The notes beneath the pieces are model-generated. The model saw only the letters and a program-made list of their open reading frames with translations. It was not told where the DNA came from and made no database searches. 64,000 bases of DNA from Octopus vulgaris (Eukaryota), in assembly GCA_951406725.2 (NCBI GenBank), contig OX597821.1:94798001-94862000 (forward strand), given 5' to 3'. Both the position numbers and the translations under genes were made by a program. Position 1 is the first letter of the stretch, and each line of letters opens with the position of its first letter. Positions 4,751 through 55,626 of the stretch are shown piece by piece.

Positions 4751-4821
<71 letters not shown>

Positions 4822-4824
<3 letters not shown>

Positions 4825-5524
4825 GGGAGTAAAGTATATGGACCTCATTGTTCTTGGTTTCTAACCAGAATTCCATGTCTAAAACTGGTAGCCTATAGTT
4901 GGGGTGCTTGTTAGGGTAGTCTATCATTACTTTGATACTTTGGAGTTAGCTATGTGCTGGATGCTCTCCATAGTGTTAGCTTCTAGATCATCAACATTGT
5001 CTTGTAGGTGTGCTTTGGCTATTGTGTTGATATCACCCACATAGCGGGAGTACATGGTTAGGGCTATGGAGTTCTCTGCAAATTTCTCTTTCAGTCTCCT
5101 ATCCCACCATACCATAAATAGGTTACCCACATCGCCAGTGATACTGAGACCAATGGCTGCATCTTCCTCTTGGGCGTATATCGTGTTATTAAACTTAAAT
5201 ATGTGGCCCCTGAGTGTGATCTTGGTACTTTTTAACCTGATCATCGTTTTCGGGGATCCGTATGGCTCTGGTCCACCCGTTCCATCTCTCTCCAGGGATC
5301 TCCCTGGCCATAGAAGTTATACTAGAGGGTCTACTTCTTCCCGATCTAGTGGGGCAGAAACAACTAAGGTCATGTTCATCTAAGTAACCATTTTTACATG
5401 TCAGTCTTAGAGGGAGGCCCAGTTCTGTGCCGACACCACGAAACTCCACATCGGTCTCCCTGATCACCTTTACACATTTCTCCACAGTAAAGTCAACATC
5501 AATGGATGGGTAAGAGGATACTAC
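4822..5524 (-). pseudogene. Penelope-like element reverse transcriptase fragment, inserted in (TA)n
   Basis: VVSSYPSID (motif A), FKFNNTIYAQEEDAAIGLSITG (motif B), YSRYVGD (YxRYVDD) and DYPNKHPNYRLPVLDMEFWL..HILYSHY. Contains frameshifts and is flanked by (TA)n on both sides. Confidence 0.85.
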
Positions 5525-5525
5525 T

Positions 5526-5563
<38 letters not shown>

Positions 5564-5565
<2 letters not shown>

Positions 5566-5846
5566 GAAGTAAGTAAATAAATGTGAAACACGGTGGAAAA
5601 AAGTCTACTCAAATACCAGAGGTAGAGTAATATGCTTTATTTAAAAGCACCGGAAATATAACAAAAGCTGTTACTCAGAGTTTCACGTTCCCGTTCGTCG
5701 GACAGTTTTGTTAAAATAGAACAGAAGTATCAATATATAACAGTATTATTGTTATTTCTGTTCTATTTTAACAAAGCTGTTCGAAGAGCGGGAACGTGAA
5801 ACTCTGAGTAACAGCTTTTGTTATATTTGTGCTACTTTTAAATAAA

Positions 5847-5852
<6 letters not shown>
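5564..5852. mobile_element. Fold-back non-coding element (PLE terminal-repeat-like) with an HHR motif in both arms
   Basis: Imperfect palindrome 5630-5852 between (TA)n tracts. The same family recurs at 6757-6817, 37695-37858 and 37998-38160. Confidence 0.7.
5668..5705 (-). ncRNA. Minimal type I hammerhead ribozyme, CCGACGA core variant
   Basis: CUGU-CCGACGA-ACG(GGAA)CGU-GAAAC-UC(U)GA-GUA^ACAG: stems I, II and III all pair. A mirrored copy lies on + at 5777-5814 with core UCGAAGA. Confidence 0.7.
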
Positions 5853-6407: not shown

Positions 6408-6717
6408 TCAGAAATATTAAATTTCTAAATATCTCATAGAGATATGTACGGTGGTGGGGCGATATAGTGGTTGTATACTGTCAACTTAACGTGACAGTAA
6501 GGGAGTGGATTACACCACCGCTCTTTAGCCCTAGGAAGCATCGACGCTTCCTGTCGGCCTTGACACATTTCCTGTGTCCTTATATATTTACGAAGGGGAG
6601 ACAAATACCTCCAACAGCTAGGCCTGCATCTAGAGACACGCATGTTTCAGGGTCTTTGCCCATCATCGCTCTAGAGTAGCAGAGGCCTGCTAGCTGAAGA
6701 TATCTGTCTAGACTTCG

Positions 6718-6720
<3 letters not shown>
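6408..6720 (-). mobile_element. HHR-bearing short non-coding element (retrozyme/PLE-derived), copy 1
   Basis: Collinear with 49224-49545; sits in (TA)n; HHR fold at 6629-6675. Confidence 0.75.
6629..6675 (-). ncRNA. Type I hammerhead ribozyme (degenerate core GCGAUGA)
   Basis: UCUAGA-GCGAUGA-UGGG(CAAAGA)CCCU-GAAAC(AUGCGU)GUC^UCUAGA. Confidence 0.6.
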
Positions 6721-6756
<36 letters not shown>

Positions 6757-6848
6757 TTTATTTAAAGCAGCAGAAAATTCTACAAAACCTTTTACTCTGA
6801 GTTTCGCGTTGCTGTTCATATATATATATGCATGATTGTGTGTATTGC

Positions 6849-8446: not shown

Positions 8447-8520
<74 letters not shown>

Positions 8521-8700
8521 CATATATATATACATATATATACGACAGGCTTCTTTCAGTTTCCGTCTACGAAATCCACTCACAAGGCTTTGGTCGGCCC
8601 GAGGCTATAGCTGAAGACACTTGCCCAAGTTGCCACGCAGTGGGACTGAACCCGGAACCATGTGGTTCGCAAGCAAGCTACTTACCACACAGTCTCTCCT
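8261..8700 (-). mobile_element. tRNA-derived SINE family A (CORE-like, internal microsatellite)
   Basis: B-box GGTTCAGTCCC, CORE-like GCGTGGCAACTTGGGCAAGTGTCTT, internal (TA)/(TG) tract, 3' tail GGCGGTGCTCCAGCATGGCCACAGTC. Confidence 0.9.
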
Positions 8701-9104
8701 ACGATAAACTTTCTCTCAGCTTCTACTTGTTACTTGACATAAGTCACTGTTTGATAAAAGTCTGTTATAGATGACACTTATGGAAGGGTCAGCACATGAG
8801 TATCGAACCCAGAAGCAAGTAGTTTAGAAGCTACTCTCTTAAGCATCGAGACATACTTGTTCATAGATACTACGTTAAAATTCACTGCATGTATTTTGCT
8901 CTCTTGAGGCAGTACACCTTATTCGACATTACCTCATTTCACTGTTTATAATATCATTTGTAGCAGATCAACTGGGATTTTTACTTTAGTATGATTTGTT
9001 AACCTTCCAGGTGAATATTTATCTCGCATCTGTTTAACGTCAAGAGTTAGATATCATGATATACGTTAAGAAAACGCATACAAACATATAGCTATAAGTA
9101 TAGA

Positions 9105-12568: not shown

Positions 12569-12958
12569 ATGGAAGCACTCCGGATGGAAGCACTCCGTCG
12601 GTTGCGACGATGAGGGTTCCGGTTGATCCAAATCAACGGAACAGCCTGCTCGTAAAATTAACGTGTAAGTGGCTGAGCACTCCACAGACACGTGTACCCT
12701 TAACGTAGTTCTCGGGGATATTCAGCGTGACACAGAGAGTGACAAGGCCGGCCCTTTGAAATACAGGTACAACAGAAACAGGAAATAAGAGTGAGAGAAA
12801 GTTGTGGTGAAAGAGTACAGCAGGGATCACCACCATCCCCTGCCGGAGATTCGTGGAGCTTTTAGGTGTTTTCGCTCAATAAACACTCACAACGCCCGGT
12901 CTGGGAATCGAAACCGCGATCCTATGACCGCGAGTCCGCTGCCCTAACCACTGGGCCA
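12569..12958 (-). mobile_element. tRNA-derived SINE family B
   Basis: A-box TGGCCCAGTGG, B-box GTTTCGATTCC; nearly identical to 39954-40340; small tandem duplication of the tail. Confidence 0.92.
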
Positions 12959-19421: not shown

Positions 19422-19637
19422 TTATTTTACTTGTTTCAGTCATTTGACTGCGGCCATGCTGGAGCACCGCCTTTAGTCGAGCAACTCGACCCCGGGACTT
19501 ATTCTTTTTGTAAGCCCAGTACTTATTCTATCGGTCTCTTTTTGCCGAACCGCTAAGTGACGGGGATGTAAACACACCAGCATCGGTTGTCAAGCAATGC
19601 TAGGGGTACAAACACAGACACACATACATATACACAC

Positions 19638-19706
<69 letters not shown>

Positions 19707-19867
19707 TATGACAGGCTTCTTTCAGTTTCCGTCTACCAAATCCACTCACGAGGCATTGGTCGGCCCGGGGCTATAGCAGAAGACATTTGCCCAAGATGCC
19801 ACGCAGTGGGACTGAACCCAGAACCATGTGGTTGGTTAGCAAGCTACTTACCACACAGCCACTCCTA
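19420..19867 (-). mobile_element. SINE family A, full-length
   Basis: A-box TGGCTGTGTGG, B-box GGTTCAGTCCC, internal (TA)/(TG), 3' tail. Confidence 0.93.
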
Positions 19868-33122: not shown

Positions 33123-33542
33123 CTCTTACTCTTTACTCTTTTACTTGTTTCACTTATTTGACTGCGGCCATGCTGGAGCACCGCCTCTAATCGAGCAACT
33201 CAATTCTTTTTGTAAGCCCAGTACTTATTCCATCGGTTTTTTTTGCCGAACCGCTAAGTGACGGGGACGTAAACACACCAGCATCGGTTGTCAAGCAATG
33301 CTAGGGGACAAACACAGTCACACAAACATACACGCACACTCACATATATATATATATATACATATATACATATATACGACGGGCTTCTTTTTCAGTTTCC
33401 GTCTACCAAATCCACTCACAAGGTTTTGGTCGGCCCGAGGCTATAGTAGAAGACACTTGCCCAAGGTGCCACGCAGTGGGACTGAACCTGGAACCATGTG
33501 GTTGGTAAGCAAGCTACTTACCACACAGCCACTCCTGCGCCT
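33123..33542 (-). mobile_element. SINE family A, full-length
   Basis: Head GGCGCAGGAGTGGCTGTGTGG through to the (GAGTAA)n tail. Confidence 0.93.
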
Positions 33543-35619: not shown

Positions 35620-35842
35620 TATAATATATAAAGTTAATCCAAACATGAAAACACAAAGAGAAAACACAACAACGCGAAGACGTGGAACAAATATAGTATT
35701 ATTGGACGCTCAGGAAGTAAGGGAAGAAGGAGGGTTTAACGTTTCGAGCGGAGCGCTTCGTCAGAAACATAGGAAAAGGAAAGATCCAGAGAAGGGAAAA
35801 CGGAGGGAAAAAATCGCCAACGGTACACACGTGGTCACATTA
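35620..35842 (-). mobile_element. Short element with a minimal hammerhead ribozyme (35734-35768)
   Basis: GUUU-CUGACGA-A-GCGC(UCC)GCUC-GAAAC-GUU^AAAC: canonical CUGANGA/GAAA core with a palindromic ACGU stem III, typical of PLE minimal HHRs. Confidence 0.75.
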
Positions 35843-35866
35843 TAATATATACATACATATATATGC

Positions 35867-37676: not shown

Positions 37677-38161
37677 ATATATATATCTATATATAGACAC
37701 AAACGAGTAAGCACATAAATGCAAAACAAGGTGGAAAAAATAGTACTCGAATACCGAAGGTAGAGTAATTCGTATTCTTTTTGTTAACACTGCAAGAACG
37801 TCACAAAAAACTGTGACTCAGTTTCACGTTCCCGTTCGTAGGACAGTCGCGATCAAGACTCTCTCTCTCATTCTTTCCTCTATCAAATTTCCTTATAAGG
37901 CATTAGCCAACCCTGTGCGATAGTACAAGTCTGAGATTCATTCCTGGAGAGGGTGATCCAATTTTCCACTCCAGCGCCTATATATATATCTATATATAGA
38001 CACAAACGAATAAGCACATAAATACTGAACAAGGTGGAAAAAATAGTACTCGAATACCGAAGGTAGAGTAATTCGTATTCTTTTTGTTAACGCTGCAAGA
38101 ACGTCACAAAAAACTGTGAATCAGTTTCACGTTCCCGTTCGTACGACAGTCGCGCTCAAGA

Positions 38162-39953: not shown

Positions 39954-40340
39954 TTGGAGGCGCAATGGCCCAGTGGTTAGGGCAGCGGACTCGCGGTCGT
40001 AGGATCGCGGTTTCGATTCCCAGACCGGGCGTTGTGAGTGTTTATTGAGCGAAAACACCTAAAGCTCCACGAGGCTCCGGCAGGGGATGGTGGTGATCCC
40101 TGCTGTACTCTTTCACTACAACTTTCTCTCACTCTTACTTCCTGTTTCTGTTGTACCTGTATTTCAAAGGGCCGGCCTTGTTACTCTCTGTGTCACGCTG
40201 AATCTCCCTGAGAACTACGTTAAGGGTACACGTGTCTGTGGAGTGCTCAGCCACTTACACGTTAATTTCACGAGCAGGCTGTTCCGTTGATCGGATCAAC
40301 CGGAACCCTCGTCGTCGTAACCGACGGAGTGCTTCCATCC
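39954..40340 (+). mobile_element. SINE family B, full-length with 11-bp TSD
   Basis: TSD ATATTGCATAC at 39943-39953 and 40341-40351; A and B boxes intact. Confidence 0.95.
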
Positions 40341-40652
40341 ATATTGCATACAAAAATAAAAACATACTACATACATACAACTGCTTACAAAAATAGGGAT
40401 TAATGTATAATTCTTTCTATGTTCATAATTTTTTGTTTACAATATTGAAAAAAAACTATGCCACCAAAAAAAAGAAAAGACGTAATTTCTCCAGAAACAA
40501 GTATAAAGCAAGGACGGTTTCACCTCCAACCGTTTGTTATGTCAGTCACCACATACACTGAAACACCATTCTGCTGTGGTGGCCGTAAGGACGGAAAGTT
40601 GCGTAATGTTGTTTACATTAGGAAGTAAATTATTCATTTATTTCAAATATAA

Positions 40653-41066
40653 AGGCGTAGGAGTGGTTGTGTGGTAAGTAGCTTGCTAACTAACCACATG
40701 GTTCCGGGTTCAGTCCCACTGCGTGGCATCTTGGGCAAGTGTCTTCTGCTATAGCCCCGGGCCGACCAATGCCTTGTGAGTGGATTTGGTAGACGGAAAC
40801 TGAAAGAAGCCTGTCGTATATATGTATATATTTATATGTATGTGTTTGTGTGTTTGTGTGTCTGTGTTTGTCCCCCTAGCATTGCTTGACAACCGATGCT
40901 GGTGTGTTTACGTCCCCGTCACTTAGCGGTTCGGCAAAATAGACCGATAGAATAAGTACTGGGCTTACAAAGAATAAGTCCCGGGGTCGATTTTCTCGAC
41001 TAAAGGCGGTGCTCCAGCATGGCCGCAGTCAAATGACTGAAACAAGTAAAAGAGAGAGTAAAGAGT
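40653..41066 (+). mobile_element. SINE family A, full-length
   Basis: Complete head, CORE-like segment, internal microsatellite and tail. Confidence 0.94.
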
Positions 41067-41892: not shown

Positions 41893-42278
41893 GGAAGCAC
41901 TCCGTCGGTTACGACGACGAGGGTTCCGGTTGATCCGAATCAACGGAACAGCCTGTTCGTGAAATTAACGTGTAAGTGGCTGAGCACTCCACAGACACGT
42001 GCACCCTTAACGTAGTTCTCGGGGATATTCAGCGTGACACAGAGAGTGACAAGGCCGGCCCTTTGAAATACAGGTACAACAGAAACAGGAAGTAAGAGTG
42101 AGAGAAAGTTGTGGTGAAAGAGTACAGCAGGAATCACCACCATCTCCTGCCGGAGCCTCGTGGAGCTTTTAGGTGTTTTCGTTCAATAAACACTCACAAC
42201 GCCCGGTCTGGGAATCGAAACCGCGATCCTATGACCGCGAGTCCGCTACCCTAACCACTGGGCCATTGCGCCTCCACT
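41893..42278 (-). mobile_element. SINE family B, full-length with 11-bp TSD
   Basis: TSD ATAAGGAACAT at 41882-41892 and 42279-42289. Confidence 0.95.
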
Positions 42279-43836: not shown

Positions 43837-44217
43837 CTTTTACCTGTTTCAGTCATTTGACTGCGGCCATGCTGGAGCACCGCCTTTTAATCGAGCAACT
43901 CGACCCCAGGACTTATTCTATCGGTCTCTTTTGCCGAACCGCTAAGTAACGGGGACATAAACACACCAGCATCGGTTGTCAAGCAATGCTAGGGGGACAA
44001 ACACAGACACACAAACACACACACACACATATATATACATATATACATATATACGACAGGCTTCTTTCAGTTTCCGTCTACCAAATCCACTCACAAGGCA
44101 TTGGTCGGCCCGGGGCTATAGCAGAAGACACTTGCCCAAGATGCCACGCAGTGGGACTGAACCCGGAACCATGTGGTTGGTTAGCAAGCTACTTACCACA
44201 CAGCCACTCCTGCGCCT
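43837..44217 (-). mobile_element. SINE family A, near full-length
   Basis: Collinear with other copies. Confidence 0.93.
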
Positions 44218-47942: not shown

Positions 47943-48328
47943 TGGAGGCGCAATGGCCCAGTGGTTAGGGTAGCGGACTCGCGGTCGGAGGATCGCGGTT
48001 TCGATTCCAAGACCGGGCATTGTGAGTGTTTATTGAGCGAAAACACCTAAAGCTCCACGAGGCTCCGGCAGGGGATGGTGGTGAACCCTGCTGTACTCTT
48101 TCACCACAACTTTCTCTCGCTCTTTCTTCCTGTTTCTCTTGTACCTGTATTTCAAAGGGCCAGCCTTGTCACAATCTGTGTCACGCTGAATCTCCTCGAG
48201 AACTACGTTAAGGGTACACGTGTCTGTGGAGTGCTCAGCCACTTGCACGTTAATATCACGAGCAAGCTGTTCCGTTGATCGTATCAGCTGGGACCCTCAT
48301 CGTCGCAACCGACGGAGTGCTCCTATCC
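47943..48328 (+). mobile_element. SINE family B with 13-bp TSD
   Basis: TSD ATAGTTTATCTAG at 47930-47942 and 48329-48341; the empty site is visible in the paralog at ~49979-49990. Confidence 0.95.
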
Positions 48329-49128: not shown

Positions 49129-49619
49129 ATATATATATATAATATTATATATATATATTATATATATATAATATTATATATATATATTATATATATATAA
49201 TATTATATATATATTATATATACTCAGAAATACTAAATTTCTAAATCTCTCGTAGAGACATGTACGGTGGTGGGGCGATAGAATGGTTGTATACTGTCAA
49301 TCTAACACGAACGTGACAGTAGGGGGGTACACCACCGCTGTTTAGCCCTAGGAAGCATCGACGCCTTCTGATGGCTTTGATACATTTCTCCTGTGTCCTT
49401 ATATACATTTACGAAGGGGAGACAAATACCCCCAGCCGCCAGGGATGCATCTAGGGACACGTGTTTCAGGATGATTGTCCTTCGTCGGCCTAGACTAGCA
49501 GACACCGGTCAGCTGATGATATTTGCTTCGACTTCGTAATGTATATATCTAAATTTCAGTGAAGTCTATTCACTGATTATCAAAATCAGAAATACTAAAT
49601 TTATACACATTATATATAA
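49129..49619 (-). mobile_element. Retrozyme-like HHR element (362-bp unit with terminal redundancy) flanked by a 17-bp duplication
   Basis: TCAGAAATACTAAATTT at 49224 and 49586; TATATCTACTGAAAGAT at 49112-49128 and 49620-49636; HHR at 49450-49494. Confidence 0.75.
49450..49494 (-). ncRNA. Type I hammerhead ribozyme, CCGACGA core variant
   Basis: UCUAGG-CCGACGA-AGGA(CAAUCA)UCCU-GAAAC(ACGU)GUC^CCUAGA: perfect 6-bp stem I, 4-bp stem II, palindromic stem III. Confidence 0.8.
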
Positions 49620-54347: not shown

Positions 54348-55626
54348 TCAGTTCATCCCATAAGTAATGTTCGGACTTTTATATTTTCAATTTGTAAACG
54401 CTTTAACAATATTTTAGAATATCTAATGGCATGAAGTAATATTTATATGTATTTAGACATATTTAAACAAATTAAACTTCATTTTGCATTATAATATAAT
54501 TGAAATTTCTCTAATGTATAGCTCTTCAAACAGGGAAGTGTCTAAGGAGCATTTGCGGCACATAATACTTTATGAATTTAAAAAAAGGGAACTCTGCAGC
54601 TGAAGAGACTCGAATATTCACTCAGCTTATGGAGAAGAGTACATGAATGAAAGAAGTTGCAGAAGATGGTTGGTAAAATTCAGAAGTAGAGATTTTAACC
54701 TTGAAGATGAGGCCTGAACAGGACGTCCAATTGAGGTTGATGACAAGCTCCTTTTGGCAAAACTTGGAATAGATCATGCATTTTCAGTTGAGGAATTGAT
54801 AAGCAAGCTTCGTTCAAGCCATACAGCTGTTCACTGCCATCTTCAACAGCTTGGAAAGTCCCAACACTCAGGAAATGGATGCCTCATGAATTGTTTGACG
54901 CCTACTGCAAATCCCGAGAGGACATCTGCTCTTCTTTTCCTTCTCGTGAACTCCTCTCGTTCTTTTTGGACAGATTGGTGACCGGCGATGACAAATGGTT
55001 CTTATATCAAAATGTTGAGCGTCGTAGACATTGGCTTGATGAAGGGGAAAAGGCCCAACCACAACCGAAAAGAGAACTCCACGAGAGAAAGGTTCTTCTC
55101 TTTTTTTGGAGGAAGATTTCTAAGGAGCCATCCATTTTTACATGCTACCAGCTAATGCAACAATTAATGCTCAAATCTACTGTCAGCAATTAGAGCATTT
55201 GAACGCTGCTTTGAAGAAGAGGAAAAAAGTGATTAGAAAGGAAGTGGTATTTCATTAGGACAGTGCAAAAACCCACACTGCAAAGATCACGTCACAGAAG
55301 ATCAAGGAACTTGGCTGGGAGAAAATTGCTAATCCCCTTTATTCCCCAGACCTAGCTCCTTCAGATTACCATTTGTTCAGTAGTTTACAGAATCATTTGG
55401 CTGAGTTAACTCTTGAAACAACTGAGGAAGTCGAAACTGACCTTTCAGAGTTCTTCGCTTCGACACCGGTAGAGGTTTTCACTAATGAAATTAAAAAGGT
55501 TATCAGTAGATGGAAAGATGTCTTAGATAATCATGGAAACTGTATTGATGATTAAGTTTCATTAAAATGTAAGATTTGATCACTTGTTTTCCTTATTTAA
55601 GATCCGGATATTACTCATATGATGAC

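Follow-up and report, generated by a model that had tools for sequence, protein, structure and literature searches.

We consider it reasonably probable that the motif on the minus strand at 49450-49494 of the window (the whole stretch of 64,000 nucleotides analyzed here) is a type I hammerhead within a tandem retroelement of ~362 nt. Judging from its sequence, it likely self-cleaves, probably at a reduced rate and as a dimer, and the C at position 4 of its core (C4, i.e., CCGA in place of CUGA) would be a tolerated state, gained and lost by source elements. The U4C hammerheads of this genome are real, inherited and recurrent; they are most likely tolerated, slower but working, in retrozyme and Penelope-type elements.

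Hammerhead Motifs in the Window

All five hammerhead stretches that an earlier note had read in this DNA are present, letter by letter, four of them on the minus strand (Table 1). The 49450 motif has three helices round C3-N7-A9, G12-A14, A15.1-U16.1 and H17 and is open at helix I, as a type I hammerhead is. Paired cells amount to 95% in family A hammerheads (51 distinct copies) vs 26-51% in slid controls, and the outer helix is 95% paired as well. The U4 of the canonical CUGA turn is what family A lacks (C in 96 of the first 100 matches). Since C4 is accepted as an exception that occurs in nature, the motif is less "canonical" on this count but remains a "hammerhead".

Table 1. Hammerheads and the elements that carry them in the window.
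Feature	Position	Strand	Details
Type I hammerhead, subfamily A1	49450-49494	minus	UCUAGG-CCGACGA-AGGA/CAAUCA/UCCU-GAAA-CACGUG-UC-CCUAGA
Stem I of 49450 motif	49494-49489/49455-49450	minus	6 bp
Core CCGACGA of 49450 motif	49488-49482	minus	C4 = 49487
Stem II of 49450 motif	49481-49468	minus	4 bp and hexaloop
GAAA of 49450 motif	49467-49464	minus	
Palindromic helix III insert of 49450 motif	49463-49458	minus	
Predicted cut of 49450 motif	between 49456 and 49455	minus	GUC triplet
Complete A1 hammerhead	49445-49501	minus	adds internal loop 1 (3 nt / 1 nt) and outer stem of 4 bp
Family A element	49224-49600	minus	one ~362-nt non-coding unit and repeated head-to-tail junction, (TA)n at end
Subfamily A2 copy, 5′-truncated	6408-6736	minus	hammerhead 6629-6675, GCGAUGA, private G3
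Family B 3′ end, subfamily B1	5545-5729	minus	hammerhead 5668-5705 with CCGACGA
Inverted half of 5668 family B insertion	5752-5852	plus	damaged hammerhead 5777-5814, UCGAAGA
Old subfamily B2 copy	37679-37847	minus	hammerhead 37810-37847, CCUACGA, G5U, helix III shortened
Tandem duplicate of B2 copy	37982-38150	minus	core more damaged
Family C copy	35626-35851	minus	minimal hammerhead without loop III at about 35734-35768, canonical U4
Family B piece, truncated	6751-6817	minus	5′ core lost

The occurrence of C4 in sister copies, to which the earlier note had appealed, holds as far as the letters go, but these are mutated copies or an inversion and lend no independent support. G3 at 6629 is private to that copy (C3 in 33 of 34 rows), the state of subfamily A2 being CCGAUGA with U-U at the stem II base; damage after insertion accounts for U3/A7 at 5777 and for U5 at 37810. 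The 5777 hammerhead is not independent because it and the 5668 hammerhead sit in the two halves of one insertion, its own half being inverted. A sixth hammerhead, absent from the earlier list, is the family C copy, which has U4 although its family is mostly C4.

The best Rfam match for the 49450 motif is Hammerhead_1 at 17.1 bits, below the threshold of 34, and a scan of the whole window returned no hammerhead among the 150 of 267 matches listed, which are mostly microsatellite noise. Microsatellites also dominated a repeat search of the window, and the host, an animal, has a 2.8-Gb, microsatellite-rich genome.

Family A: a Retrozyme-Type Repeat

A family A pattern that left positions 3, 4, 5, 7 and 8 free had 557 exact genomic matches vs none for a reversed control. 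By hand count, the first 100 in genome order comprise 96 C4 and 4 U4, two of the latter forming one inverted pair; G5A occurs in one and G8A in three of the same 100. C4 is the inherited state of the family A source elements, not damage in copies.

The unit is non-coding and in many loci runs head to tail, its 3′ end continuing into another 5′ start of the unit; direct dimers spaced 360-366 nt apart were found at five loci (L022, L003, L238, L239 and L243). Family A thereby has the tandem organization of non-LTR retrozymes (170-400 nt non-coding, one type I hammerhead per unit, at least two units), and its natural cut-to-cut unit folds at z = -7.87 with a GC content of 0.43, in line with the self-pairing and GC below 45% of that class. 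Most of the family consists of dispersed monomers to dimers with Penelope-type inversions; insertions mostly stop at one fixed 3′ point before (TA)n, and an inverted 5′ piece is frequent. Helix III is still self-complementary after a 2-nt insertion (duplexes of -11.7 and -13.9 kcal/mol), as expected for activity as a dimer of the kind described in PMC4209133. We found no autonomous partner for family A, which counts against the explanation that we favor.

A gag-like ORF upstream of some family A copies was considered as the family's own gene and rejected, being a separate insertion with target duplication. At L241:1672-5941 (minus strand), a near-complete L1/Tx1-type element with endonuclease and RT frames lies between two inverted A2 pieces.

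Family B: a Penelope-Type Element That Regained U4

The family B copies of the window are 5′-truncated 3′ ends with inverted partners. Genome-wide, the family B pattern had 6,159 exact matches and its reversed control none; 73 of the first 100 carry U4, 25 carry C4 and 2 another letter, and a single subfamily, whose core is CUGAUGA and whose stem II has A-A at its base, accounts for 71 of these 100. Because exact patterns favor young copies, 73:25 overstates the U4 share of all family B copies. The nearest relatives of the 5668 copy have C4 in 38 of 41 rows, a tally that concealed the U4 majority, as top-match tallies are biased to the query and contain overlapping rows. A family consensus of CUGANGA, named beforehand as evidence against the C4 reading, is therefore partly found in family B, in its derived youngest subfamily, whereas family A stays C4.

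U4 in the youngest family B subfamily is by all appearance a recent reversion from C4, since this subfamily nests inside C4 lineages (tree of 47 rows with core and stem II masked; support 98/90, bootstrap not fully settled) and is the most homogeneous, with a mean pairwise distance of 0.016 (n = 9) vs 0.055 (n = 27) and 0.156 (n = 12). Older subfamilies carry C4, and the youngest has a long RT-endonuclease frame. Across 38 rows of an old subfamily (four of which are two window copies counted twice), C4>T was counted in 7, G5>A in 9, C7>T in 9 and G8>A in 11. Genomic copies thus decay at CpG without sparing the catalytic G5 and G8, and since these decay like C4 and C7, decay after insertion is neutral and constraint acted on source elements alone. 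Variation in helix III is confined to its central base, which is unpaired (28 T, 9 A and 6 C of 43).

C4 copies of family B (L063, L065 and L067) have an upstream frame of reverse transcriptase and GIY-YIG type, which in L228 stays open for 507 aa. It matches atlas clusters with RVT_1, HTH_animal and GIY-YIG at 0.95-0.98; Pfam, NCBIfam and PDB searches returned nothing for it. The organization is that of EN+ Penelope elements, i.e., a single ORF with RT, then a C-terminal GIY-YIG, and a Cys-rich linker, and the family shows the Penelope traits of 5′ truncation, inverted terminal copies, (TA)n targets and a hammerhead near the 3′ end. We take it to be of Neptune/Nematis type, the Neptune assignment coming from motifs. 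Compared with the linker described in PMC8557442, the sequence shows a C-x-C-x5-C-x5-C-like motif.

Young family B copies (L228:2667-5350 and L229-L236) have a ~1-kb microsatellite-rich 3′ UTR and occur in inverted pairs 1-4 kb apart. A broken Penelope-type reverse transcriptase fragment, flanked by (TA)n tracts, lies at 4820-5527 (minus strand) of the window; our impression is that its clade is Naiad-like. We rejected it as the ORF of the 5668 element: (TA)n lies between the two, the fragment is absent from the other 29 family B loci, and it has no family B protein match.

Family C and Genome-Wide Recurrence of C4

Family C is a minimal hammerhead without loop III, with ~9,700 copies and ~70% C4 (9,685 C4 matches genome-wide; by hand count, about 68 C4 vs about 30 U4 in the first 17.4 Mb of contig C1). 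Its tree (43 rows) contains a supported U4 subclade and U4 outgroups, and the data suggest that C4 arose within the family. Nine extended loci, recovered with one bait set, showed no RT/GIY-YIG ORF, and the minimal hammerhead and the insertion pattern are the only Penelope features that fit.

Cores without loop III number 11,928 with CCGA (control 111), almost all family C among the 100 listed, and 15,435 with CUGA (control 140), so that about 44% of such matches carry C at position 4. Family D (L199) accounts for roughly half of the first 100 CUGA matches; it is an abundant repeat whose minimal hammerhead has a long stem II and the canonical core CUGAUGA, and 8 pieces of it occur in 400 kb of arbitrary stretches. 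The same 400 kb held 3 strict matches (1 C4, 2 U4) vs 1 in three shuffles, too few for a tally.

The recurrence of C4 in unrelated families, proposed from two of them, is borne out by A and B and extends to C. Local alignments of A against B, C and D score 20-34, within shuffle maxima of 26-35, the best match being an AT-rich 22-mer, and none of the four families shows similarity to another above shuffles. If U4C is the one tolerated change at position 4, such recurrence is expected. In metagenome contigs, 73 of 94 CCGA matches are one dispersed repeat (the L298 cluster) whose flanks do not resemble those of family C; C4 was imposed by the pattern, and unforced partner copies of that repeat were C4 in 7 of 7. 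The L298 cluster, L327, L341 and L330, all from the DNA of other organisms, are dispersed repeats that carry CCGA minimal hammerheads with a closing stem I. A three-copy repeat (L146:8996, L153:7050 and 8385) has a possible U3-A8 core (UUGACAA) and a CCGG helix III.

Covariation and Constraint

Between the 49450 and 6629 copies, the compensatory stem changes described earlier are there (G-C vs A-U at stem I pair 2.1-1.1, A-U vs G-C at stem II pair 4), but they amount to two events, and an uncompensated change of stem II pair 1 from A-U to U-U in the 6629 subfamily had been left out. Across 83 family A hammerheads, stem I pair 1 is G-C in 48 and A-U in 33, stem II pair 4 is A-U in 52 and G-C in 30, and stem II pair 1 is A-U in 51 and U-U in 29. 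The two compensations are separate single events, since intermediates, including G-U, occur among family A matches. Pairs with a double change numbered 3 vs 2.9 in shuffled data (51 distinct copies).

Outside the core, the three A subfamilies diverge at 4-13% of columns (12-13% between the more divergent ones); none of the 14 core columns distinguishes them, which is not significant (P 0.13-0.55). In contigs of 7 public runs covering 49487 (labelled organisms A-D), C is the only letter listed and position 7 varies (two rows are omitted from one set). Other CpG cytosines are kept across the family A subfamilies in 10 of 15 cases. What stands of the proposal that C4 is a core variant kept under structural selection is that C4 is inherited and the fold is kept at the subfamily level; selection on C4 itself is not shown because 10 of 15 other CpG cytosines persist, family B reverted and family C is mixed.

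Evidence on Cleavage

Catalytic positions other than 4, as well as the cleavage triplet (GUC, GUA or GUU), are intact in the majority state of every subfamily. None of 163 family A fragments starts at 146, the cut-site 5′ end, a result compatible with a circular template and with an uncut one as well. Expression records listed no RNA holder. In four runs guessed to be RNA, contig depth is 10-30-fold lower over the hammerhead; we rejected this as a sign of cleavage, since three large DNA-like runs show the same drop, which reflects 5′ truncation; a fourth run (X20) does not reach the core. A head-to-tail family A joint occurs in contigs of one run guessed to be RNA, and the joint is present in DNA too.

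Relation to Known Hammerheads

Family A resembles metazoan non-LTR retrozymes (Cervera and de la Pena 2020, PMC7229834; Li, Clavereau, Pollet 2026, 10.64898/2026.07.22.740005) in its ~360-nt non-coding tandem unit, 43% GC and strong self-pairing, in having one canonical-size type I hammerhead per unit and in the co-occurrence of Penelope elements; the U-U of A2 at the helix II base is also reported from an axolotl retrozyme (PMC7229834). It differs in that CCGANGA is fixed in three subfamilies, in its mostly dispersed monomers to dimers and Penelope-type inversions, and in being known here from DNA. Its architecture (6-bp helix I, 4-bp helix II) is the canonical metazoan form described in PMC4209133. 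Penelope hammerheads (Cervera and de la Pena 2014, PMC4209133) are likewise type I, near the 3′ end, with a minimal or small palindromic helix III and inverted truncated copies, and family C corresponds to their minimal form, with an extra base after A9, G10.1-C11.1 and no loop III. A core variant reported there is U3-A8, whereas here position 4 is C and toggles between subfamilies.

The earlier note took U4 to be nearly invariant in canonical hammerheads; U4C is a published natural variant (PMC3088659, PMC9608096, 10.64898/2026.09.16.752053). It considerably lowers activity in vitro yet permits viroid infectivity, tertiary contacts having been proposed as an offset (PMC3088659); CCGA was found in 4 variants and PLMVd cleavage is said to be unaffected (PMC9608096); and CCGA occurs in the ZV1 minus strand and several betaviroid-like RNAs, with cleavage demonstrated for both strands (10.64898/2026.09.16.752053). 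These viroid-like RNAs carry the identical core change with self-cleavage reportedly retained; the zeta and betaviroid-like hammerheads are type III and the viroid-like U4C variants often a minority, in contrast to the octopus ones, which are type I, DNA-encoded and present in thousands of copies over several subfamily generations. U4C is thus not new chemistry but already known as tolerated; our literature search, with incomplete coverage of key papers, found no report of C4 as the fixed state of animal retroelement families; the available text of 10.64898/2026.07.22.740005 does not mention CCGA. The prediction that standard descriptors would miss such motifs applies to CUGANGA, used in the search for PLE hammerheads (PMC4209133), but CYGANGA descriptors are also in use (PMC13481778). 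Rfam misses even a natural U4 copy (17.4 bits vs 14.3 for its C4 twin, threshold 34), U4C costing 3.1 bits in this matched pair. Lunse et al. 2017 may list CCGA variants.

The CUGANGA descriptor loses about 12,000 minimal hammerheads and all of family A here, and counts of animal hammerheads and retrozymes are probably underestimates. Matched subfamilies that differ at position 4, each with hundreds to thousands of copies, allow cleavage rate to be set against amplification history.

Explanations for C4

Starting from what was read directly (sequence, copy counts, tandem structure and subfamily order), we infer cleavage, its rate, circular RNA and a helper enzyme as follows. Read-through or multimeric family A transcripts would be cut at GUC and the unit-length RNA would circularize; a Penelope-type reverse transcriptase/GIY-YIG helper would start at (TA)n targets from a fixed priming point, located about 230 nt beyond the cut, and its copying through the hammerhead would produce the more-than-unit and inverted insertions that are observed. 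Loop-loop contacts in family A and the dimer helix III could offset the loss of U4. The same U4C change would have arisen separately in family B, an autonomous Penelope-type element that later reverted, and in family C. Against this explanation count the core constancy, not significant alone (P about 0.13-0.16), a total of only two compensatory events beside the uncompensated A-U to U-U change, the lack of any excess of cut-site 5′ ends, the lowered in vitro activity of U4C (PMC3088659) and pairwise mutagenesis of a type III hammerhead, in which every single mutant of the CUGA region was low in activity (PMC9901934).

Alternatively, C4 could be an adaptive brake, slower cleavage sparing uncut multimers for more-than-unit reverse transcription, with one handicap, C4 or a broken stem II base, per successful lineage. 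CCGA in three unrelated families and in a repeat of another organism's DNA is consistent with this, as are source elements that kept C4 although it creates a CpG that decays in copies, and a subfamily that lost pair 10.1-11.1 (A-A) on reverting to U4. We nevertheless hold it to be doubtful: C4 is retained no more than other CpG cytosines, A2 combines C4 with U-U so that the handicaps are not exclusive, canonical-core families are equally abundant (15,435 U4 vs 11,928 C4), and mutation alone would produce the recurrence if U4C is the one tolerated change. Its general form, in which elements of the Penelope system repeatedly tune the hammerhead down, with a retrozyme, an autonomous element, a third family and another organism's repeat each having taken up U4C on their own, and the regain of U4 being paid for by an open stem II base, likewise seems unlikely to us. 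If it were true, CUGANGA censuses would have missed a large share of animal hammerheads (here >40% of one class), and natural matched C4/U4 pairs could test why Penelope elements carry hammerheads, a role called unclear in PMC8557442.

It is rather improbable that these hammerheads are no longer catalytic, the fold being kept only for the retroelement enzyme to bind or to prime on and the tandems coming from uncut multimeric transcripts. The low activity of CUGA mutants, the poor in vitro cleavage of minimal PLE hammerheads even with U4 (PMC4209133), the absence of cut-site ends and the replacement of the usual G10.1-C11.1 by A-U, U-U or A-A in families A and B would agree with it, but the intact remaining catalytic positions and triplet speak against it, as do the maintained dimer palindrome and the fact that the core position that changes is N7, the free one. 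Finally, post-insertion damage or chance likeness in a few copies has a negligible probability: although four of the five copies first described have private damage or are an inversion, it is refuted by C4 in 96 of 100 unselected matches with controls of 0, and decay runs from C to T, not from T to C.

Other Repeats in the Window

A fragment of a Mariner-type transposase (PF01359) lies at 54792-55193 (plus strand). One SINE-like short dispersed repeat family occupies 8448-8701, 19614-19867, 33284-33537, 43959-44212 and 40625-40876, and a second one 12632-12862, 40061-40291, 41939-42169 and 48049-48279.
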